Notes under the pieces: model-generated
What the model saw: the letters and a program-made list of their open reading frames with translations, nothing else
Told to the model about the DNA's origin: nothing
The model's database searches: none
Source: a virus
Taxonomy: Duplodnaviria > Heunggongvirae > Uroviricota > Caudoviricetes
IMG/VR virus record: IMGVR_UViG_2703718819_000006
Strand: one strand, 5' to 3'
Length of the DNA: 64,000 bases
Shown: positions 19,522 to 36,325 of the stretch, one piece after another
Layout: each line of letters starts with the position of its first letter
Numbering within the stretch: position 1 is the first letter of the stretch
Translations under genes and position numbers: made by a program

Positions 19522-21861
19522 TTACTCTTCTACTGACTCGGTGGGATTGTCTTTTGATCTCCGGTCGTCGATTGCCTGTAAAGCCGCAATGATTTCAGCT
19601 AGTGGCTTCTCCCGATACATCTCGACGATCTGTGATTTGGTGTATTTCTTGTCACCAATTTCTACTCGACCGCTGGCGTTCTTTGGCAGGTATCCTTCTT
19701 CCAGCATGTACTCGACGAGCGACTCGATAACGTCGAGGCCACGAGTAGGATCGAAGTAGAATTTCCAGGTGCATTTGCCATACGGTGGTGCAACTTTGTT
19801 TTTGATGCACTCTGCGCCTACGTCCTGGCCGATCTTCTCTTTCCCATCCTTCATCACCGATGCACCGAGACGGATGCGCACAGAAGCGTAAAACTTCGGT
19901 GAATCGCCGCCTGGAGACGTAGTAGGGTCGCCAAACATTACACCGATTTTTGTGCGAACCTGATTCAAGAAGATGATGCAGGCGTTGTATTTGCGTGCCC
20001 ACAAAGCCAGAGTAGGGAAGTTCGCACTCGTCGCACGAGCCAGCGCCGTATTGTCGTTCATGTTTAGCTGATCTTTGTCTTTGGCAGTGCCTTCAGCCAT
20101 CTTTTCGAACTTCTCGGCTTTGGAGTTCGGAACCATAGACGCAAGTGAGTCAGCCACGATACAGATAGGTGCTGATTCAGGAATAAGCTCTTCATCACGT
20201 ACCAATTTAAGAATTGTGCCGATCAACTCTACAGAGTCTTCGAAGGTATCAGGCTGCTTGTATACCCACTGACCGTCATCCTCATCTGCATTCAAACCAT
20301 TGGCTACAGCCAGGCCAACGTCAAAACTGTTTTCATGATCGAGGAATACCGCCAGACCATCTTGTTTTTGAGCGGAGATCATCGCTGCTGTTGCAAGGAA
20401 TGTGTTGTGGCTGATAATCCCGTTAGACCAGAAAGAGTGTGTTTCCGGCATCGCTACGTCGAACGTTGGTGCTTCACCTTCCTCAATAGCCACGACTTCG
20501 TCGTAGAACAAGTTAGAGCCAATTACCGCTGCCAGTTGTGCAAACAGATGCTCGTTAAAACGATTCTTTCTGCCAATGAAGGAGACATAGATTTCTCGCA
20601 GTTTGTCTATTCCGACACGATCGCCGCGGCCAATAACGTGGTCTACCAGAGCGTAGTCTTCACGGGTGGTCTTGGTGAGCGACTCGTAGAGTGATTTCAC
20701 TAAGCCGCTGATGTGCGGAACATAGCCTGAGTAAGTGCGGTCAAAACCAATGTCCCGTTTGGTTGCCACTGATAAACGTGCCGGAGATTCGAAACCAATC
20801 GTTGACAGAAAAAGGTCGTAATTAGAGCCACTGAATGACAGCCGGTAATATGTATTTTCATAACCCGCGACGTGTTTTTCAGAGATAGTTGACGTAATCC
20901 CCAGATTCAGGAGCATGAGGCGAATTTGCTGTAGCAGCAGCCCACTCGCGCTCACAACCTCAATGCAGCGACCATCATTGACGTGGCATTCCAGCTCAAA
21001 GTAGCCGCGAAGGAATGCAATTTGAGCCTCGCTATTGGCGCGACGCACACTCAACGGAACCTGCTTGCCAGCAGCTTTCTCATACTCCAGACCATATTCT
21101 TTAAAAAGCAGCGAACGCACCTCTTTGCTAAACAGCACATGGTCTTCCGAGCCGTTATGTTTTCTCGTAACTGGCATCTTGTCTGATACCAGCGAAATGA
21201 GGCGGTAGTACTCATCCTTGATGAAAGGATCTGTGTTAGAAAAATTCACTGAATTTTCAGAGGCCACGTATCCGTCAGCAATTAAATAGCCCATCAGTTT
21301 TGCGATATTGGCATCCAGGTGCTGATCGCCGAATTGATGTGTGCCAACCATTGAAGGAATCGTGTCGCCTACACTGATTTTTTCAGCATGTCGCCAGACG
21401 ACATTACCTAAGTCGTCAACCACACGGATTGGGTGACGGAACGTAGCCTCGATATAACCGCCTGATGCCAGCTTAATACGCTTGAATTTGCGACGGTTGT
21501 TCCATGTCAGGTGTGAGGTCTTCTCTATCACGCCATTTTCATTGATGAGTCCAACGTTATGCTCTACATCGCGAGTAGTGCATGTCGCTTTGTACCCTTC
21601 AATCTCAAACAACTCTTTCACTGTTACCATTCCACGCTCCGTCAGCAGCATGGTGTCTGCGGTAACACATTTCCCCGCGCTTGGAGGACCGAATACTTCT
21701 ACGATACGACCACATGGGAAACCGCCATCGTAACGACCGGAAATAGCTTTGTTTAACGGAGGAAAGCCTGTGTCAATCCAATGAGTTACTTTCTGAATTT
21801 CGTCGTTGCTACCGATTTTCTTTTTCAGAGCAAGTGCCAGTGCGGATTTTCCTTTTGCCAT
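19522..21861 (-). CDS. recA: RecA/UvsX-family recombinase interrupted by an intein
   Basis: 779 aa. Exteins (about 357 aa) carry GRIVEVFGPPSAGK|T and IIFLNQVRTKIGVMFGDPTTSPGGDSPKFYASVRIRL, closely paralleling E. coli RecA as recalled. Confidence 0.85.
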   Translation of the reverse strand: MAKGKSALALALKKKIGSNDEIQKVTHWIDTGFPPLNKAISGRYDGGFPCGRIVEVFGPPSAGKCVTADTMLLTERGMVTVKELFEIEGYKATCTTRDVEHNVGLINENGVIEKTSHLTWNNRRKFKRIKLASGGYIEATFRHPIRVVDDLGNVVWRHAEKISVGDTIPSMVGTHQFGDQHLDANIAKLMGYLIADGYVASENSVNFSNTDPFIKDEYYRLISLVSDKMPVTRKHNGSEDHVLFSKEVRSLLFKEYGLEYEKAAGKQVPLSVRRANSEAQIAFLRGYFELECHVNDGRCIEVVSASGLLLQQIRLMLLNLGITSTISEKHVAGYENTYYRLSFSGSNYDLFLSTIGFESPARLSVATKRDIGFDRTYSGYVPHISGLVKSLYESLTKTTREDYALVDHVIGRGDRVGIDKLREIYVSFIGRKNRFNEHLFAQLAAVIGSNLFYDEVVAIEEGEAPTFDVAMPETHSFWSNGIISHNTFLATAAMISAQKQDGLAVFLDHENSFDVGLAVANGLNADEDDGQWVYKQPDTFEDSVELIGTILKLVRDEELIPESAPICIVADSLASMVPNSKAEKFEKMAEGTAKDKDQLNMNDNTALARATSANFPTLALWARKYNACIIFLNQVRTKIGVMFGDPTTSPGGDSPKFYASVRIRLGASVMKDGKEKIGQDVGAECIKNKVAPPYGKCTWKFYFDPTRGLDVIESLVEYMLEEGYLPKNASGRVEIGDKKYTKSQIVEMYREKPLAEIIAALQAIDDRRSKDNPTESVEE
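20404..21669 (-). mobile_element. intein (about 422 aa) with LAGLIDADG homing-endonuclease domain, inserted in the RecA P-loop
   Basis: Starts with Cys right after GPPSAGK (CVTADTMLL...) and ends ...GIISHN followed by Thr (the extein T of GKT); internal LMGYLIADGY and FLRGYFELEC motifs. Confidence 0.75.
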
Positions 21862-24280: not shown

Positions 24281-24712
24281 TCAACGGGGAGTAATAAAGC
24301 GTTCAGAGCCTAATCGCTCTAATTCAACGATGGCCATCTTTGACGCCTGAACGATCATGTCTCGGCGATGCGAAAAGGCGGCGACAGCATGTTTGTATAT
24401 GTCTGCGATGTGCCGTGCTTCATCCAACTTCTGCCTTTTAGACAGATACTGTGGGTTTGTTTTAACCTTAGCGTCCAGTACAGATTCGTTGAACTTAATG
24501 CCGTTCATACTCAAGTTCTTACGCTCTGTGTCGTATAGCTTTGCTTCAACAGCTTCAAGGTTAAGTTTTGCCTCTGCGACACTTCTTTCTGCATGAGCGA
24601 GTTTTGAGCCATACTCCATTAAAAGGCGGGGTTGTCTACGCCAGACTTCCTCCAGATTGTCTCGGTCAAACTCGAGATCAGACATTATTTTCTCGTAAAT
24701 ATCGGTGATCAT
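24281..24712 (-). CDS. hypothetical protein (possible recombination mediator; speculative)
   Basis: 143-aa ORF between SSB and polymerase; helical, no motif assigned. Confidence 0.45.
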   Translation of the reverse strand: MITDIYEKIMSDLEFDRDNLEEVWRRQPRLLMEYGSKLAHAERSVAEAKLNLEAVEAKLYDTERKNLSMNGIKFNESVLDAKVKTNPQYLSKRQKLDEARHIADIYKHAVAAFSHRRDMIVQASKMAIVELERLGSERFITPR

Positions 24713-24802
24713 GTGCTTTCCTTTTTACTTATCATCTTATATTGATTATATCATTGTGATGATAAGGCAAGGAGTTCGAGGATAGGGGATATGAGGGGAT
24801 AA

Positions 24803-24830
24803 GAGAAAACATGGCCATAGAGGCCATGTT
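24803..24830 (-). terminator. rho-independent terminator after polymerase gene
   Basis: Perfect 9-bp stem AACATGGCC/GGCCATGTT with 5-nt loop, followed on the minus strand by TTTTCTC. Confidence 0.65.
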
Positions 24831-24837
24831 TATGGGA

Positions 24838-27800
24838 TCACGACTTAATAGTTTCTGCTACGTCGGCTAATATCGCTTCTAGTCGTTCTCCCTCTTCAGG
24901 TCTGAAGTAAAGAATGTTGGGGTTAAACCCGTAAAAGACAGTAACGTCAAGGTCTGGAAGATACTCCTTCCTGCCGACCAAATCGGATGGCTTGTTTTTG
25001 TTGTTAAACAATGAAGTTGCCCGGCTGCCACACGTCAGCACATAGGTCGGACGCACCAGATTGATCTCTTCACGCATAAAGTCGGTGAACTGGCCGATCT
25101 CGTCTTTGGTGTAGTCCTTTTCTTTGTCTTTAACCTTCTTGCAAACGCCTGTGACATAGAGATCGCCCATGCGCAAATCCCCAGCCGTCAACAGCTTGGC
25201 CTTAAAATCGTCGTATCCGTTCTCCATAAAGTAACCGGTTCGAGCATCATTGCCGTTCGCATTGTCCAGAATGATCATGATTTTCGGCTTAATACCAATG
25301 CTGGGGCGGATTAGTTCATCACCTAAGCCCATTTCAGCCGCCATCCGCGTCATGAGTACGTTAATCTCAGCCGAACGTTTGGGGTTCATCTCAAACGGAC
25401 GTGAGGCTTTAACTGCGTCTATGACAAGGTTTCCCATCAATTCAGCCTGGTCGCGTAGGCGCTCTGGATCAGTTGCTGGCAGACTGCCTGGCTCGATGGA
25501 TGCAAACGCCCCTACTTTTTGCAGCGATTCGCGCACTCGACTATTACAGGCACGTTTCTCGACAGCTTCTTCGAATTGCGCAAGTGACTCGAATTTGCCA
25601 CCAACCTTTTCTCGCGCTCTCATGATGGCCTGGCAGCCATTCTCAGAACACCCCTTCACAGCAGAGAAGGGCGCATACAGCACCTGGCTGCCATCTTCAA
25701 GCGTGCGGATCTCAATTCGGTTAGATGACACGTTAACGTCTGGTGGCAATACGCGAATACCATAGGTCAGCGCATCTTTAACCAGCCCCTGGTGTTTATC
25801 TTCGCCAAGAATAGTGAGAGCAGCAGCGAAAAACTCTGCGGGATAATGAGTTTTCAACCACATAGATTGATAGCTGATTAAGGAGTAAGCAACAGAGTGT
25901 GATTTGTTGAACTGGTAGGCACCATTCTTTTCGAATGCGGTCCATATCTCCTTCGCTTTCATCTCTGATAGCCCTGGATGTGACGCTGTAACGCGTACTG
26001 CGTTTATAGGTAGTTTTGCGCCGTACTCAAGTGCCTCTTCGACAGTTTTCAGAGTTCCGTCTTCGCATTTAAAATGTTCCGCACGGTGAATGCGCTGTGT
26101 AGTGCCATCTTCCAGCTCAACGTCTATCCAGCCAGCTTGAGCCTGAACGATGAACTTCTCGCCCATGCTCTTCATTTTTTCCATGTCTTTTTTGCCGATC
26201 GCTTTACGAACGCCGTCAGCTTCAGCCATTGTGAAGCCAGCAAGCAATCGAGTCGCGTTCATCGTCTGTTCCTGATAGAGAATCACGCCATTTGTTTCTG
26301 CGGTAAGTTCATCAAGAACGGGGTGTAATGATTCCGGCGTCATAAAGCCTTTGGCTACAGAAACATAGTCATCCAACATGCCTGACTGAATTGGCCCCGG
26401 CCGGAAGAGCGCAGTCGTAGCAACAACCGTTTTAAAGCTCATTGGCTCAATTCCACCACCTAAATCTTTAAGCAGCTTGCGCATTGGGCCTGATTCAAGC
26501 TGGAAAACACCTTGAGTGTACCCAGCAGCAAAACCATCCAGCACCTTGCGATCTTCAAGAGAAATGGCATCAAGATTGATATCTTCACCTGTGTTCTCTT
26601 TTATGTAGCGTTTTGCACTATCGAGCAAATCGAGAGTTGCCAGACCAAGTACGTCCAGCTTAATTAGGCCCATAGCCTCGCAGTAACGCTTGTCAAATGC
26701 GATACAACGCGCGTCACCACGGCGTTCAACCGGTGTACGTTCTGTCAGAGGAACACCTGCTACGATCATCCCTGCCGCATGTCTACCAAAGCCACGCATA
26801 AGACTTTGTAACTTGCAGGCAGCATTGAATGCATCAGGGTATTTTGTCGCGTATTTGTCGAGACTTGCCAGTTGTTCGCGCAGCTCCTCCAATGGAAGGC
26901 TATCATCCTCGACGTTCTTCAGCTCTTTTGATACCGCCATATCTGCGGACTCCACACCATAAATACGAGCGGTATCACGTAGTGCAGAGGCTGCGCCCAG
27001 GTAGGTGAAGTTCGGAATGCCTGCAACGTAATCTTCGCCGTAGCGTTCATTCAGATACTCGATCACCTCATGGCGACGTGCCTGGCTGAAGTCCAAGTCC
27101 GCATCCGGCAAGTCGAGACGCTCAGGGTTGATGAAACGCTCAAACAGAAGACCGTGACGGATTGGGTCGACGTTGGTTATGCCTATGCACCACGCCACCA
27201 GAGAACCGGCAGAGGAACCACGACCAGGCCCGACAGGAATGCCAGTTTCACGACTGTGATTCATCAGATCGCGTACCATCAGGAAGTAACCACAAAATCC
27301 CAGGCGAGTCAGCGTGTCCATTTCGTACTTTAGCCGCTCAACATAAACCCTGTTCTCAGAAGCAGGTGGTGTGTAGCCAAACTCTTTTGTGGTAAGACGT
27401 TTACGCAGCCCTGCAACAGCCAGTTTCATCAGCGTTGCAGGTTCGTCGTCTGCCATCTTGGGCAGTGCTGGTGGCAATTCATGCCAGCGCCATGTGCAGG
27501 CATCGATAATGGAGTCCTGCGTTGTTGAGGCCATTGCAGCTGTTACCGGCACATCCATGCGAACGGAGAAGGCTTTAAGCGCCTCAAGGAGATGGCGACG
27601 ACCATTGATGGCGTTATCTCGCTGGTGGGGGATACGCAGACGATGCGGCTGGTCGATTTTTATGTTGTTCGTAACCATGTGCGCAATGTCTTTAATGTCT
27701 GCATCGTCGATCGATTCGTAATAAGCGGGATAGAACGCCACTGGCTCTATTTTCAATGCGCTGGCGACTTTCATCGCCCGGACGTTAATCTGGTCGTAGA

Positions 27801-28356
27801 ATGGGGTAGGGTGCGGATAAACCACACTATAGAAGTTGTCTTTTCCACCCGCTGTAATCAGTGAGCTTATGATTTTTGCAAAATCGTTGCGTTGGAACAC
27901 GCTACCGATGTCGGAAGTGAGCAGGATGATGTTGCCTTTGGCATATGTAGAAACCAACTGTTCGAGCGAGAGACGCGGTACAAAGTAGAACTGTTCTCGT
28001 GTGTTGGCCACCGTCATTAGTTCGCAGATGTCGCGATATCCTTGCTCATTTTTAATTAGAGCGGTAAACGAGTAGTTACGTCCTCGCTCTAATGATTCCA
28101 TACATCCCTTAGACTCTTTAGCAATTTTAGCCCGGTACTCGTATGTGGGATCATCAACGATATTTAGTTTCACACCACAAATAACCGCCATGTCGTCACC
28201 AGCGGCACGTTGTAGTGGAATAACGCTCGCAATATTCATGCTATCTGCTGAAATTACAGCGGTGTAGCCAGCTTCTCTGGCAATCTTCACCGCGTTTTCT
28301 GCTTTTAGAGCCGACTCCCCAAGTGAGAAGTCAGTTCGAACCATCAGTGCCTTCAT
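24838..28356 (-). CDS. dnaE: DNA polymerase III alpha-like replicative polymerase (DnaE family)
   Basis: 1172 aa; core motif [27 protein letters not shown] matches DnaE (GPGRGSGAGSLVAY...) as recalled; N-terminal PHP-like region appears to lack the usual His cluster. Confidence 0.9.
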   Translation of the reverse strand: [1172 protein letters not shown]

Positions 28357-28534
28357 GTGTTTTTACCTTTCTGGTTTTTTTGATTTTGTCATTGGGGAAG
28401 CCTACGAACTTCCCATGCATCGAAATCGCAACTTCTTTTGCTGATTGGTGACAATCGGGCTTGTCTGGACACACCAGACAAGCCTTACCAGTTTCAGAAG
28501 CAGCGATAAGAGAGCCGAAACATCCTTTACGCAC
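28331..28534 (-). CDS. possible small Cys-rich (zinc-ribbon-like) protein
   Basis: 67-aa ORF with CLVCPDKPDCH; overlaps the polymerase start by 26 nt. Confidence 0.25.
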   Translation of the reverse strand: MRKGCFGSLIAASETGKACLVCPDKPDCHQSAKEVAISMHGKFVGFPNDKIKKTRKVKTHEGTDGSN

Positions 28535-28536
28535 GA

Positions 28537-29772
28537 TTAACCAAATATTTTTTGAACAACTTCACGAGCCGCTTGTGCAGAAGCTGAAGGGAGTTTGTTA
28601 ATGAAAGAACGCTCAATACCTGTCACAAAGTCGCCTCGCATCATTCCAATCTTGGCCGACAACAAAAGTTCACGAGGGCCAATTGGCTGACTAATAAGGT
28701 GTTCTTCGTATCCATCGCGAACGATACCGGCAAACTTAACCATCTTTTCAGCGTATTCATCCACGATGCCTGCATTTATCAACATGTTGATCTCTGCGTC
28801 TTTGCTCATGTATTTCACATTCGAAACGATGCCAAAACGCGAAAAGTTCGCGGCGTTCTGGATGTTTGTACCCTGGTACAAGCCGGTTTCATCACCAGAT
28901 CCGTTCGTGTTGCCAGTGCCAATGAAAGCAAACCGTTCATGCGGAGTAATGCGACGCCATTCTGGAGTCGCCTCTTTGATGACCAACGCTTCACCTTCCA
29001 GCACTGGCTGATACACGCCAAGAATCTGTGGAAACGCAAAGTCGTATTCATCCGCGAGGTAAACCCAGCCATGCTTCATTGCGAGCGCAAGCAAGCCAGG
29101 CTCGAAATACGTAGAGCCATCACGCGCCAGAATTTGCCCCGTAACATGTGCCTCTTCCATTGATGCTGTATGTTGGGCACGGATCAACGGACGATTGAGC
29201 AAAGCACATAGCTGTGTAGGCAATGACGATTTGCCTGTTCCTGCATGACCCCACAAATAGCCAGGTATGCCAAGTTCAAGCATCATGAAAATGTCTTTGA
29301 TCAGTTCGAAGTCGCCATATACGTATCCCTTCTTCACTTCTGGAACGAACTCTGGAAACGGCGTATTGACGTTGACGCTAACCATGAGCGGCGTCCCACG
29401 TTTTGTTCCGAGTTCTTTCACCGTTACATTTAGCAGTTCGTGAGCTGCGACCAGATCTGTCTTGTACTCAACTGTGCCTGTGTAGCCTGGGCTACTGGTC
29501 ACGCCAGATGATTTGGCCATTTCGCTTTTTTGCTCGGCACGTTTAGCTTGAATTGCATCAAGTGCCTTTTTCGATAGCGTTGGCTCATCTGGAAACTGTG
29601 TTGTGTACATTTTCAGTACGGTGTCAGGATCGGCATCTTTTACTGACTCAGGAATGCCCTCGCAATTACCATTGGCTACATGGGACTTAAAATAGTGAAA
29701 TGATTTTCCGCACCACTTGCAAACAAGGTAATCAGAAGGATTTTTTTCATTTTGCAGTGCAGTAGTAGTCAT
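28537..29772 (-). CDS. AAA+ ATPase (MoxR/CobS-like) with N-terminal zinc ribbon
   Basis: 411 aa; N-terminal CKWCGKS...NGNCEG; Walker A GHAGTGKSS; Walker B VYLADEYDF. Confidence 0.75.
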   Translation of the reverse strand: MTTTALQNEKNPSDYLVCKWCGKSFHYFKSHVANGNCEGIPESVKDADPDTVLKMYTTQFPDEPTLSKKALDAIQAKRAEQKSEMAKSSGVTSSPGYTGTVEYKTDLVAAHELLNVTVKELGTKRGTPLMVSVNVNTPFPEFVPEVKKGYVYGDFELIKDIFMMLELGIPGYLWGHAGTGKSSLPTQLCALLNRPLIRAQHTASMEEAHVTGQILARDGSTYFEPGLLALAMKHGWVYLADEYDFAFPQILGVYQPVLEGEALVIKEATPEWRRITPHERFAFIGTGNTNGSGDETGLYQGTNIQNAANFSRFGIVSNVKYMSKDAEINMLINAGIVDEYAEKMVKFAGIVRDGYEEHLISQPIGPRELLLSAKIGMMRGDFVTGIERSFINKLPSASAQAAREVVQKIFG

Positions 29773-29867
29773 GCGTTTTTCCTTTGTTTTCTAATGAGCG
29801 TTCAACTTCTTATATAAATATATCATTAACTATCGTAAGTGGTTACTTATCATTAAGGCTGTTTTAT

Positions 29868-31976
29868 TCACTTCAAAATGATACGAGATAGTTCAGTAAC
29901 TACAGATGAACCAAGACTATCAACGCTCGTTACCAGGGCATGATTTGAGTAAAATCTCTCCGGTGCGTCAGTCATGATGCCAATTGCCATCAAATCAATG
30001 TCAGTCTGCGTTTCAATTTGCTTCGCAACCGAACGCAAATGAGCGTCAAAACCTCTCCCAACAGCCAACGGCGCGCCATCACTCAGAACAAGCATGATCT
30101 TCCTGTCCTCCATGCGACCGGAAAATAACGATGCAAGGCTGGCTATGCTTTCACCATCCACGTTATTAAGAAGTGGGAATGTGTAGCCTACGCACCCCAT
30201 ACGTGAGCGAACTTCGCGAGAATTTACCTTTTCATTCCAATTTTTGATGATAGGTAGCATTAAAGATTCAAAGCGAGAGAACTCATACTTGACAGCCTTA
30301 AGTTCTCCTGCCGCCATATGACTACCAAATGTAGTGAAGCCGGTGATAATGTTGGGAACATTTATTCGATCAAGGGCATCGGCGATGGTATATGCACTTG
30401 CAAGAGCCAATTGTATCGTTATACCACTCATTGAACCTGATAAATCAATCACTTGTTGAACACAGGCGTTAACGGCTTTAGATTCTTCTTTTTTACGAAA
30501 CACGCGATCATCATTCATTGCTAATCTGTAGATACTAGAACCATGAATGCGCCCCCGACGCTGGCCCGGTATAAACTGAACTCTGTTTCTGCTTGCTATT
30601 GCTCGCTCCAGATCTTTTGCCAGCGTCGACGAAACACCTGACGAAAGATGCTTTTCAATATATTTGTCGAAGAGCTGGTTGCCTTCAGGAACGATGCGAT
30701 AGCGGCTGATTGGATATCCTCCTAAATCAATATCGGAGAATGTTTTAATAAGCCGTTTGATATGGGCTTCTGCCTGATCAATCGAGCCGATGAAGTCGTA
30801 TGAGCGATTGTATGGTCTGTATTCGCTTTTCGAGCTTTCTGTTAACTCGCTTTTAATCGTTTCGGATAGCGCATCTTCTGTCATGCCTCCGACTTCATCT
30901 TCCATGCTATCCAACTCCTCTAAAGCCTCTTCCAGACTCATTTTTGACGGAGTTGGAATGTCTGAAGAGCCGTCTTCTGTCGATTTTCTTTTTTCGTGGT
31001 CAGTGGTAAATGATTCTGACGCCGCGTTATCAGAAGCACCAGAATCTGATACCTCTTTATCATTTTCTGTATCATCGAATATTGTTTCTGATGATTCAGA
31101 ATTATCTGAATCATCACTGTCGTTATTATCATGTTTGTGCTTACTGTGTGATTCTGATTTGATAGATTTGTGATTATCTACCGCTGAGGGTGTCTCATGA
31201 TCTTCGTTGTCTTCATTGTTTTCTCCAGAGGCATCCGTCTGGTCAGCGTCTGAAGGATCGGAAGTTTTTCCCGGAGCTGACTCCTTACCTTTGCTTTCAC
31301 TTTCAGTGTCTTTGAGGATCTTAGCTATGGTCGCAGCCACCTTTACACAATCCTCGGTGCAAGACATGTTACGCACGGCCACATCGATACCATGTTCTTT
31401 TAATAATGAAATTGGTTTCTCAATGACAGGCCAATATTCATCCATGAAATCTACGAACGGTGCTTGGCCATCCCAGGCTCTTACAACCGGACAGAGAAAG
31501 AAGTTTAGAAAAAGCGCGCGCTGATCTTTGCCACAATAAGCAATAGCCTCTGAAGCCTTTGGTTTAAAGACTTTTTCGATTATAAGGCGCTGAGTTGCCA
31601 TCAGATTACGTCTTGTTCCGTTAAAGACCTGACCCATTTTTCGCTCGATGAACACGTCTTCTAAGGCATTCCATAGCGACCAGGAAGGAACGCGTCCCTT
31701 TTCTCTCATTTTGTTGGACACACGAATATCGGTAAACAAAATGTGAGCAACCTCATGATCGAGAAATCCGCGCACAGCATTCATCAATGCCGGTGTTGCG
31801 TTATCCGGGATTGATGGGATGTTTACGAGAATTGGCTCTCCATCATCGTTATAGCGTACATAAGCGTCGTCCCCTCGTTCTGCAACAGGGATGTTTTTAC
31901 CTGAAAGGAGAGCGACTACTCGTTTTACACTGTCACGGAAGTCCTGAACCTCTTTGATGGAACGTTTTTTAGACAT
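29868..31976 (-). CDS. vWA-domain protein (CobT-like) with long acidic Ser/Asp/Glu-rich disordered region
   Basis: 702 aa; MIDAS-type DLSGSMSG and LVLSDGAP motifs in the C-terminal half; central region about 150 aa rich in D/E/S. Confidence 0.7.
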   Translation of the reverse strand: MSKKRSIKEVQDFRDSVKRVVALLSGKNIPVAERGDDAYVRYNDDGEPILVNIPSIPDNATPALMNAVRGFLDHEVAHILFTDIRVSNKMREKGRVPSWSLWNALEDVFIERKMGQVFNGTRRNLMATQRLIIEKVFKPKASEAIAYCGKDQRALFLNFFLCPVVRAWDGQAPFVDFMDEYWPVIEKPISLLKEHGIDVAVRNMSCTEDCVKVAATIAKILKDTESESKGKESAPGKTSDPSDADQTDASGENNEDNEDHETPSAVDNHKSIKSESHSKHKHDNNDSDDSDNSESSETIFDDTENDKEVSDSGASDNAASESFTTDHEKRKSTEDGSSDIPTPSKMSLEEALEELDSMEDEVGGMTEDALSETIKSELTESSKSEYRPYNRSYDFIGSIDQAEAHIKRLIKTFSDIDLGGYPISRYRIVPEGNQLFDKYIEKHLSSGVSSTLAKDLERAIASRNRVQFIPGQRRGRIHGSSIYRLAMNDDRVFRKKEESKAVNACVQQVIDLSGSMSGITIQLALASAYTIADALDRINVPNIITGFTTFGSHMAAGELKAVKYEFSRFESLMLPIIKNWNEKVNSREVRSRMGCVGYTFPLLNNVDGESIASLASLFSGRMEDRKIMLVLSDGAPLAVGRGFDAHLRSVAKQIETQTDIDLMAIGIMTDAPERFYSNHALVTSVDSLGSSVVTELSRIILK

Positions 31977-32074
31977 GGCTAATCCTTTGTTATGAAAACA
32001 AATTATTTACTAGTGTGTTTAATGTAGCACTGCGCGAACAGGGAACTAAGCCATTCGCGCAGGGAGAAGAGGGG

Positions 32075-32287
32075 TTAACAGATTCTGACGGCTAAAGACC
32101 CGGAGCCGATATTGAGAAGCGTGAAGCGTTTGTTGTTAAGTTCGAATATAAAGCCAGTTGTGTCATTCACACCAATCTGAATCTGCTCATTCGGTAGATC
32201 GGTGAGGATGTCAGCTACACACTCATCAGCTAATTTCTGTACGTGTCCGATCTCAAGAGCGATTAGGCTGGAAATAGTGGTGTTCAT
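32075..32287 (-). CDS. hypothetical protein
   Basis: 70-aa ORF, divergent from the XRE-like gene. Confidence 0.35.
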   Translation of the reverse strand: MNTTISSLIALEIGHVQKLADECVADILTDLPNEQIQIGVNDTTGFIFELNNKRFTLLNIGSGSLAVRIC

Positions 32288-32538: not shown

Positions 32539-32925
32539 ATGTCTGATAACAAGATTGAATTTATAGAAAGTCGCTATGCTGCTTTTATCGCAGGGCTGAT
32601 TGAATCCTCACCTATGAGTCAGGCCCAAATAGCCAGACTTATTGGTTATAAAAATGCCAACAACCTTTCTTTAATTAAAAGTGGCAAAATTCCTTTGCCT
32701 ATCGATAAGGTTCGTCCGTTGGCGCTGGCGCTGGGTATTGAGCCAAGTCGTCTTATGATGATGGTGCTGGAAGAACGCCAACCTGAACTCGCAGCATTTT
32801 TATACAAAGAAGGCACCGCTCCTCTTAACGAGGACGAAAAACAGGTTCTTGCTGCATATAACGAGCGATTCGGTAAAGAGAAAGGCGCATCACAAAAGGT
32901 TGTTGAGGCTATAAAGTCTCTATGA
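32539..32925 (+). CDS. XRE-family helix-turn-helix transcriptional regulator
   Basis: 128-aa plus-strand ORF; MSQAQIARLIGYKNANNLSLIKSGK resembles an HTH_XRE helix-turn-helix. Confidence 0.6.
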   Translation: MSDNKIEFIESRYAAFIAGLIESSPMSQAQIARLIGYKNANNLSLIKSGKIPLPIDKVRPLALALGIEPSRLMMMVLEERQPELAAFLYKEGTAPLNEDEKQVLAAYNERFGKEKGASQKVVEAIKSL

Positions 32926-36238: not shown

Positions 36239-36325
36239 TGGCGGAGAGTAATGGAATCGAACCATCATCGCTTGCGCAATGGGACGGTTTTCAAGACCGC
36301 TTGAGCACCATGCTCCCTACTCTCC
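36239..36325 (-). tRNA. tRNA-Ser (anticodon UGA), type II with long variable arm
   Basis: Hand-folded: acceptor GGAGAGT/ACTCTCC, anticodon loop CTTGAAA, T-arm GATGG-TTCGATT-CCATT, encoded CCA. Confidence 0.75.

Follow-up and report, generated by a model that had tools for sequence, protein, structure and literature searches.

A CobT/CobS-type gene pair in the replication operon of an SSU5-like phage-plasmid is not a cobaltochelatase and may remodel proteins in the lytic programme

Results

A CobT-like and a CobS-like gene precede the polymerase gene in an SSU5-like phage-plasmid

We analysed a 64,000-nt stretch of Caudoviricetes DNA (IMG/VR record IMGVR_UViG_2703718819_000006; the whole stretch is hereafter termed the window), focusing on two adjacent minus-strand genes. 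The first to be transcribed encodes a CobT-like protein of 702 amino acids (aa; 29868..31976; Pfam CobT and CobT_C) with a zincin-like N-domain, an acidic linker, a shaft and a vWA domain carrying a MIDAS (metal ion-dependent adhesion site). The second encodes a CobS-like, MoxR-class AAA+ ATPase of 411 aa (28537..29772; Pfam AAA_5). An earlier reading of the window from its letters alone (the sequence-only reading) had proposed that a MoxR/CobS-like ATPase is paired here with a CobT-like vWA/MIDAS protein. Both open reading frames (ORFs), the Walker A sequence GHAGTGKSS and the motif DLSGSMSG were present, and Pfam, PDB and Foldseek searches supported the pairing.

At the DNA level, the 4-kb stretch around the pair shared 98.9% identity with Escherichia phage Cyrano (phage-plasmid pLF82 in E. 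coli LF82), 97.6–98.7% with three further records of E. coli phages and 75% with Salmonella phage SSU5. Based on these identities, we assigned the window to the SSU5-like phage-plasmids. Phage PhiR41_1 (97.8% identity) has E. coli K-12 MG1655 as its recorded host.

All operon genes of this region lie on the minus strand and are transcribed in the order 70-aa ORF, RNA hairpin, CobT-like gene, CobS-like gene, 67-aa ORF, dnaE and a second hairpin. The pair had been described as directly downstream of the polymerase, which is true only in plus-strand coordinates; given their minus-strand orientation, the two genes are upstream of DnaE in the transcript and are transcribed ahead of it. Its proposed embedding in a replication operon held up, both in the local context of DnaE, a single-stranded DNA-binding protein (SSB), an exonuclease and RecA, and in the synteny across phages described below.

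The CobS-like ATPase retains a complete AAA+ core behind a lineage-specific zinc finger

The CobS-like protein matched Pfam AAA_5 (E = 2e-15) and, over aa 11–410, PHROG 249 (E = 2e-106). By sequence, its closest solved relatives were cobaltochelatase CobS chains (PDB 9ujv, E = 5e-26), with phage aa 141–411 aligned to canonical residues 38–315 of 328. The AlphaFold (AF2) model had a predicted local distance difference test score (pLDDT) of 90, and Foldseek matched it to NorQ/CbbQ (E = 3e-15, template modelling score 0.87–0.88).

Invariant columns of the AAA+ core (aa 141–411; 28540..29352, minus strand) were mapped onto Brucella CobS. Walker A (G175–S182, nt 29227–29250), Walker B (D241–E242), sensor-1 N288, Arg finger R312 and sensor-2 R367 were invariant among 78 homologues, and their counterparts in Brucella CobS (G71–S78, D141–E142, N186, R210 and R271) are its ATP-binding residues. 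A further family motif within the core reads R198-x-QHT-x3-EE-x-H209. Like the Brucella melitensis CobSTN complex (PDB 9ujv, 9uka), the phage pair has an AAA+ core with all catalytic residues and is encoded by adjacent genes.

The two ends of the protein differ from canonical CobS. The 140 additional N-terminal residues (aa 1–140; 29353..29772, minus strand), which canonical CobS does not have, comprise a CCHH zinc finger, a conserved helix region (Y56..FPDxPxxS67) and a variable linker. The finger (aa 16–33, nt 29674–29727) reads C18-x2-C21-x4-H26-x4-H31, a pattern found exactly in 95/113 homologues, and sits on a predicted beta-hairpin and helix (beta-beta-alpha; pLDDT 84–97). The sequence-only reading had assigned a Cys4 ribbon to this N-terminus; the ligands are CCHH instead, and an invariant Cys4(+His) set occurs in the separate 67-aa ORF. 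The CCHH finger was limited to the lineage of DnaE-encoding siphoviruses and phage-plasmids, as CobS of cyanophages and of Vibrio phage ICP2 is without it. At the other end, the protein ends opposite canonical residue 315 of 328, ~13 residues short of helix alpha10, which in Brucella CobS docks the CobT N-domain through interface residues 322–326 (preprint 10.64898/2026.07.21.739949).

The CobT-like protein combines an acidic tether, a shaft-like segment and an intact MIDAS

The CobT-like protein was matched by Pfam CobT_C (E = 6.5e-83, aa 492–701) and CobT (E = 1.4e-27, aa 9–294) and by PHROG 1576 (E = 3e-300, aa 5–702). A profile of 48 diverse relatives aligned with S. meliloti CobT at a probability of 100% (hhalign). 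In its AF2 model (pLDDT 78), a helix, a three-stranded sheet and a helical bundle are followed by a disordered linker, a helical middle and the vWA domain. The first three of these elements form the N-domain (aa 1–222; 31311..31976, minus strand).

The linker (aa 223–385; 30822..31310, minus strand) had been put at about 150 residues of D/E/S-rich sequence and measured 163 aa, with 31% D/E, 50% D/E/S and a net charge of −36, compared with 12% D/E elsewhere in the protein. Residues 233–338 were predicted to be disordered (pLDDT < 50). The distance from the HExxH motif of the N-domain (described below) to the MIDAS ranged over 421–525 aa in SSU5-like proteins and 314–581 aa in others, which points to a hypervariable linker length. 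Canonical CobT also has an acidic disordered linker, making this a family trait.

Residues 458–493 (30498..30605, minus strand) aligned in hhalign with the 'shaft' of canonical CobT, which enters the CobS ring upon nucleotide binding (preprint 10.64898/2026.07.21.739949), and contained the family-invariant residues R458, G471, G475, D489, R491 and F493. The vWA domain (aa 494–702; 29871..30497, minus strand) carries a complete MIDAS consisting of D511, S513 and S515 (nt 30432–30446, within DLSGSMSG), N605 and D633, all five of which were invariant. The whole arrangement of N-domain, disordered acidic linker, shaft and vWA domain with a five-residue MIDAS is that of Brucella CobT. The pair also follows the general scheme of an ATPase of AAA_5/MoxR fold with an adjacent same-strand vWA partner whose MIDAS is intact.

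Within the N-domain, aa 93–143 (~31548–31700) gave a nominally significant profile match to the anti-CRISPR AcrIIA26 (PDB 9zq6_B; E = 9e-4, 22 bits). It spans the motif NxVEDxFIE...G..N and may be a chance similarity in an acidic segment.

The phage CobT N-domain keeps a zincin motif that canonical CobT has lost

The N-domain contains the sequence HEVAH at aa 74–78 (nt 31743–31757). Among 48 representatives that were only ~30% identical to one another, D73-H74-E75-x-x-H78, E106, D107 and E111 were invariant. H74, E75 and H78 fall on one predicted helix (62–81), and E106 and E111 on another (100–117). HExxH was found in 142/146 representatives of 50%-identity clusters, in all 120 SSU5-like proteins and in 117 of the 118 marine relatives. 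It was likewise kept in the 'peptidase' of cyanophage S-RIM14 (HEVGH ... NVIEDARVE), in gp41 of ICP2, in gp82 of Gordonia phage Minos and in one Rhizobium phage protein. Unlike these phage proteins, the three canonical CobTs examined all lacked HExxH; in place of H, E and H, canonical CobT has S, M and R (as in 'GDSMALR' of S. meliloti), within the pattern D-S/A-x-A-L-R/Q.

The N-domain of Brucella CobT has a peptidase-M48C-like fold, binds the small subdomain of CobS and encloses CobN between itself and the vWA domain, close to the MIDAS (preprint 10.64898/2026.07.21.739949). The predicted order of secondary-structure elements in the phage N-domain agrees with the crystal structure of canonical CobT_N. 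Judged by its motif, the phage protein appears to represent, in catalytically intact form, a module whose chelatase version is a pseudo-peptidase. Cleavage of a client, or self-processing, would be a plausible but unproven consequence of the retained HExxH.

In the CobT of Pseudomonas phage nickie (contig L178, 5841–7925), DSEISK replaces DHEVAH, whilst the gene order CobT-CobS-x-DnaE and the CCHH finger of CobS are kept. This protein is a natural 'catalytic-dead' variant for comparison.

The pair is a phage-type CobT/CobS machine and not a cobaltochelatase

Earlier work had already described a viral cobST cluster and suggested that it hijacks host CobN (PMC8651126). According to this hypothesis, published for archaeal and cyanobacterial viruses, the genes would be an auxiliary metabolic function, with viral CobST acting as a cobaltochelatase motor that docks on CobN of the host and raises cobalamin synthesis to the benefit of phage replication. 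CobN is present in many hosts of other cobST-carrying viruses, and the window's pair has clear CobS and CobT homology, including the AAA+ core residues of CobS and the shaft and MIDAS-bearing vWA domain of CobT. However, the NCBIfam equivalog models for CobS (TIGR01650, 87 bits vs a cut-off of 558.55) and CobT (TIGR01651, 75.5 bits vs 759.05) were missed six- to tenfold. The CobT_N surface is also altered by the retained HExxH, and helix alpha10, through which CobS binds CobT_N, is missing.

Gene context and host gave the same answer. A cobalamin-pathway context was looked for and not found; the complete Cyrano genome had no CobN-sized or CobN-like gene, no B12 gene and no B12-dependent enzyme, and its ribonucleotide reductase is the B12-independent class Ia NrdAB. 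The literature indicates that E. coli has no CobN and does not make the CobNST substrate, hydrogenobyrinic acid a,c-diamide; B12 production in E. coli took ~30 heterologous genes, including cobN, cobS and cobT (PMC6249242). Salmonella uses CbiK in its anaerobic route (PMC7242693). In a host lacking both CobN and the corrin substrate, a role in B12 synthesis is excluded. A bona fide cobaltochelatase was therefore rejected on equivalog scores, gene context and host, and we regard a chelatase motor serving host cobalamin synthesis as very improbable.

The gene order differed as well, being T then S in the phage and S then T in S. meliloti, Pandoraea and Cereibacter. The canonical cobS-cobT genes of S. 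meliloti and Cereibacter azotoformans stand beside bolA and a J-domain gene, not beside cob genes. In the public Cyrano record (OV696614.1), the CobT-like CYRAN_47 is named 'dimethylbenzimidazole phosphoribosyltransferase' and the CobS-like CYRAN_48 'cobalamin synthetase', and the SSU5 record uses 'porphyrin biosynthesis'. The Cyrano product names appear to result from a collision with unrelated Salmonella enzymes that are also called CobS and CobT.

The pair accompanies replisome genes in three unrelated phage lineages

Conservation of gene order was assessed in 160 viral contigs, made up of 80 SSU5-like contigs and 80 whose proteins were 52–95% identical to one marine relative, itself ~47% identical to the window protein. 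In all 148 viral loci with sufficient flank, CobS came directly downstream of the CobT-like gene, and DnaE followed downstream on the same strand, 0.2–4 kb away, in 130/131 loci. The same order was found in metagenome and genome contigs, in Rhizobium phage RHph_N2_6 and in phage nickie.

Replisome genes also adjoin the pair outside this lineage. In the T4-like cyanophage S-RIM14, the 'peptidase' and CobS genes lie between gp46 and the sliding clamp/clamp-loader genes. In the Vibrio cholerae podophage ICP2, gp41 (CobT) and gp42 (CobS) are followed by primase, helicase and a family A polymerase. The T-then-S pair thus adjoins replisome genes in three unrelated lineages with three polymerase families, an association and not proof of a functional link.

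Both window proteins are adjacent and matched end to end by the two families of the viral cobST cluster (PHROG 249 and 1576), and they therefore belong to it. Its members include cyanophage CobS with its 'peptidase', ICP2 gp41/gp42, haloarchaeal tailed viruses and ~110-kb siphophages of Rhizobium, Pseudomonas and Stenotrophomonas. Common to the cluster are the T-then-S order, HExxH in most members and the replisome-gene neighbourhood; the versions of Gordonia phages differ in having S then T.

The view that such pairs occur widely in phages was well founded. CobS-like matches were present in 804 phage records, mainly cyanophages, with further carriers among ~110-kb siphophages of Klebsiella, Rhizobium, Pseudomonas and Stenotrophomonas, and the CobT vWA domain was present in 116 (67 of them Gordonia phages); earlier work likewise describes the cluster without a settled function (PMC8651126). 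Some 300 of the 804 records were AAA_5 matches at 24–28% identity in Staphylococcus (Kayvirus) and Listeria phages, which appear to be another MoxR protein. No CobT-like gene was found in phage 812, where Gp55, the large ORF upstream, lacked both HExxH and a MIDAS motif. An apparent CobS under a DnaE annotation in Xanthomonas phage JGB6 was traced to a frameshift-ridden record and was not a fusion.

A structure search of viral proteins recovered the complete domain arrangement in tailed viruses of haloarchaea, in Gordonia phages and in Thermus phage P74-26. When a canonical CobT vWA domain was used as the query, 1021 plasmid records matched, of which ~10 carried canonical CobTs; the rest were below 60% identity and were mostly enterobacterial or from Acinetobacter. 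The HExxH motif pattern GF[LIV]DHEV[AG]H occurred in genomes of 31 species, from Yersinia pestis to Magnetospirillum and Paracoccus. Among these loci (L179–L209), many CobT-like genes lay on contigs of 96–118 kb, from Xenorhabdus, Morganella, Massilia, Phyllobacterium, Ancylobacter, Paracoccus, Magnetospirillum, Chitinibacter and others. Elements of SSU5-type phage-plasmid size may thus extend well beyond the Enterobacterales.

The pair resembles MoxR rings with MIDAS adaptors

NorQ/NorD, CbbQ/CbbO and Midasin (Rea1, with UBL clients) likewise combine a MoxR-class ring with a MIDAS adaptor. In these systems, the MIDAS binds an acidic residue of the client and passes on ATP-driven force. Their identity to the phage proteins is 15–20%, and none has an HExxH zincin-like N-domain or a zinc finger on the ATPase.

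By this likeness, the pair could be a non-proteolytic maturation chaperone comparable to NorQ/NorD, CbbQ/CbbO or CoxD/CoxE. It would insert or exchange a metal in, or reactivate, a phage enzyme such as the di-iron ribonucleotide reductase beta subunit or the PHP domain of DnaE, with HExxH serving only as a metal-binding or structural site. The nearest solved structures are NorQ, NorD and CbbQ, the phage does encode metal-dependent replication enzymes, and HExxH is dispensable in nickie and in canonical CobT. However, three polymerase types accompany the pair, so the PHP domain of DnaE cannot be a general client, and in Cyrano the pair is not adjacent to nrdAB. The near-invariance of H, E, H and two Glu residues across proteins of ~30% identity also suggests more than a structural role. 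We consider such a chaperone unlikely.

AAA+-coupled metalloproteases such as FtsH, and Cdc48/p97 acting with Wss1 or SPRTN, offer an analogy only, namely an AAA+ motor with an HExxH module, here beside replication genes. No homology to them was detected when the N-domains were searched against Pfam. To our knowledge, substrate threading is not known for the MoxR clade.

The operon is silent in the lysogen

A repressor-like helix-turn-helix gene (32539..32925, plus strand), homologous to CYRAN_45 by the Cyrano annotation, is divergent from the operon. The operon's first gene is the 70-aa ORF (32075..32287, minus strand; PHROG 2627, E = 5e-40). An ORF of 55–95 aa preceded CobT in 53/76 loci examined, but the small upstream ORFs of distant relatives were rejected as homologues of the 70-aa ORF (not significant, 2.8 bits). 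Between the 70-aa ORF and the CobT-like gene lies a stable RNA hairpin (32030..32062, minus strand) with a stem of 9–12 bp and no U tract (−17.6 kcal/mol, z = −4.2). An AAGGA Shine–Dalgarno-like sequence precedes both large genes, ~10 nt before the ATG in the case of the CobT-like gene. A promoter scan returned no more sites than in shuffled sequence.

The 67-aa ORF (28331..28534, minus strand; PHROG 6337, E = 3e-45) has a GTG start, begins 2 nt past the cobS-like stop and overlaps the start of dnaE by 26 nt; it appears to be translationally coupled to both genes. It was present in 78 of the 80 SSU5-like loci, and C5, C19, C22, C28 and H29 were invariant among 22 sequence variants. In relatives, a sigma-70-region-2-like gene often takes its place, and in distant relatives this slot holds the sigma-70-region-2-like protein together with a ~170-aa protein. 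The transcription unit ends with the gene for a DnaE-type DNA polymerase III alpha subunit of 1172 aa (24838..28356, minus strand; Pfam PHP, DNA_pol3_alpha, finger and HHH_6), directly past whose stop lies a terminator-like hairpin with a 10-bp stem (24807..24831, minus strand). The DnaE proteins of distant relatives (L083, L085, L087 and L088) also gave a match to the Pfam UDG (uracil-DNA glycosylase) domain, in contrast to the window DnaE with its four domains.

By Pfam and PHROG, the genes that follow beyond DnaE encode a UvsY-like protein, an SSB of gp32 type, a 5'-3' exonuclease and a RecA with an intein; the wider neighbours of the pair include, in addition, the repressor and an integrase. 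Only ~125 bp (24712–24838) separate the UvsY-like gene from dnaE in the window. The same junction holds a hicA/hicB toxin–antitoxin insertion in Cyrano (L001, 6573–8551) and other genes in SSU5, and looks like a hotspot for accessory cargo. The RecA/UvsX-like recombinase (19522–21861, minus strand; 779 aa) contains an intein with a LAGLIDADG homing-endonuclease domain; the SSU5 gene is uninterrupted (1077 nt, ~358 aa), and an Ectothiorhodospira relative also has a RecA intein. Four tRNA genes (Ser-TGA, Thr-TGT, Tyr-GTA and Asn-GTT) lie at 36239–37218 on the minus strand; in the region inspected, the Cyrano record annotates three (Ser, Thr and Asn).

Published RNA-seq data for the LF82 lysogen placed the CobT-like gene (CYRAN_47, 7.8 normalised reads), the CobS-like gene (CYRAN_48, 6.7) and dnaE (CYRAN_49, 10.1) close to the floor of ~5, with the repressor at ~96. 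This floor expression assigns the pair to the repressed lytic programme and not to plasmid maintenance. In published LF82 RNA-seq from inside macrophages, the ORF upstream of the hairpin (CYRAN_46) rose to a log2 value of ~10.8 vs ~5.9 for the CobT-like gene, which suggests attenuation or processing at the 32030–32062 hairpin.

A function in the plasmid state, such as copy-number control, partition or stability during lysogeny, might be expected of an element that replicates as a plasmid and whose CobT-like gene has relatives in so many plasmid records (1021, as above). The expression data speak against it, as do the RepA and ParAB encoded at other sites and the occurrence of the same pair in the strictly lytic T4-like cyanophages, ICP2 and nickie. 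We hold this explanation to be the least credible of those considered.

The position of the pair, first in a derepressed operon here and where early genes give way to replication genes in ICP2, would also suit a device for host takeover or counter-defence, in which the MIDAS captures a host defence or nucleoid protein that ring and zincin then inactivate early in infection. Broad spread over phages of unrelated hosts and the hypervariable linker are consistent with this. The sequence-only reading had likewise mentioned conflict systems. However, PADLOC-DB gave no match for the CobS-like protein or the 67-aa ORF, and no known anti-defence family was matched. The sole PADLOC match was a borderline DrmE hit (E = 0.0013) to CobT-like aa 340–533, running from the acidic tract into the ordered middle, and the AcrIIA26 motif match is weak, short and unverified. 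High conservation of the functional surfaces from cyanobacterial to enterobacterial hosts argues against an arms-race target, and we judge a takeover device to be improbable.

Discussion

Our favoured reading, held with modest confidence, is that the pair uses ATP to remodel, and possibly to cleave, proteins targeted through the MIDAS as part of the lytic replication programme. By homology to the Brucella CobST structures, six CobS-like subunits would form a MoxR-class AAA+ ring that grips the conserved shaft of the CobT-like protein and moves it with ATP. The CobT-like adaptor would offer a complete MIDAS and a zincin-like N-domain across its long acidic tether, and a protein client other than CobN would be captured between the two CobT domains and remodelled, possibly cleaved. 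The pair would act at the onset of phage DNA replication, given that its genes are the first large ones of a repressor-controlled operon that ends in DnaE and are silent in the lysogen.

Several observations weigh against this reading. N-domain searches with the window protein and 25 diverse relatives (E up to 10) matched no peptidase Pfam family and returned only PF06213, and phmmer and profile searches of the PDB found no peptidase. HExxH is lost in nickie, in the same synteny, and in 4/146 representatives. Catalysis therefore cannot be essential in every case, and the example of nickie speaks for motor and adaptor activity as the core function. As the canonical C-terminal helix that binds CobT_N is missing from the CobS-like protein, the CobS–CobT_N contact may differ from that in Brucella. 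Common descent may be enough to explain the synteny among DnaE-encoding siphoviruses, there are only three cross-lineage cases, and phage genes for DNA metabolism cluster in any event. Moreover, our literature searches found no functional study of phage CobS/CobT, nor of the pHCM2 and pMT1 copies.

A stricter form of the remodeller, in which the pair is an ATP-driven, MIDAS-targeted metalloprotease whose ring pulls the shaft whilst the HExxH N-domain cuts the MIDAS-held client, seems to us unlikely. Under it, a DNA-bound or replisome-associated protein would be cleared or processed as phage replication starts, by a logic resembling that of Cdc48–Wss1/SPRTN, and we consider this part equally doubtful. 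If it were true, the CobT of cobaltochelatase would descend from such a machine as a pseudo-peptidase, CobN having taken over the position of the substrate.

The pair itself was already catalogued, and its value here lies in a tractable E. coli system for an old question. The modest new elements are the contrast between the intact zincin motif of phage CobT and the degenerate one of canonical CobT, the CCHH finger together with the missing C-terminal helix of CobS, the quantified cross-lineage link to the replisome and an E. coli phage-plasmid as a clean system, for which the E. coli K-12 host of PhiR41_1 makes genetics easy. CobS, together with its 'peptidase'/CobT partner, ranks among the core genes of marine T4-like cyanophages, and it is routinely counted as a vitamin B12 auxiliary metabolic gene. 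A zincin motif that is kept, in a pair that travels with replisome genes, provides a concrete alternative to a B12 role. If this alternative is true, many 'cobalamin' auxiliary metabolic gene annotations in viromes would be wrong.

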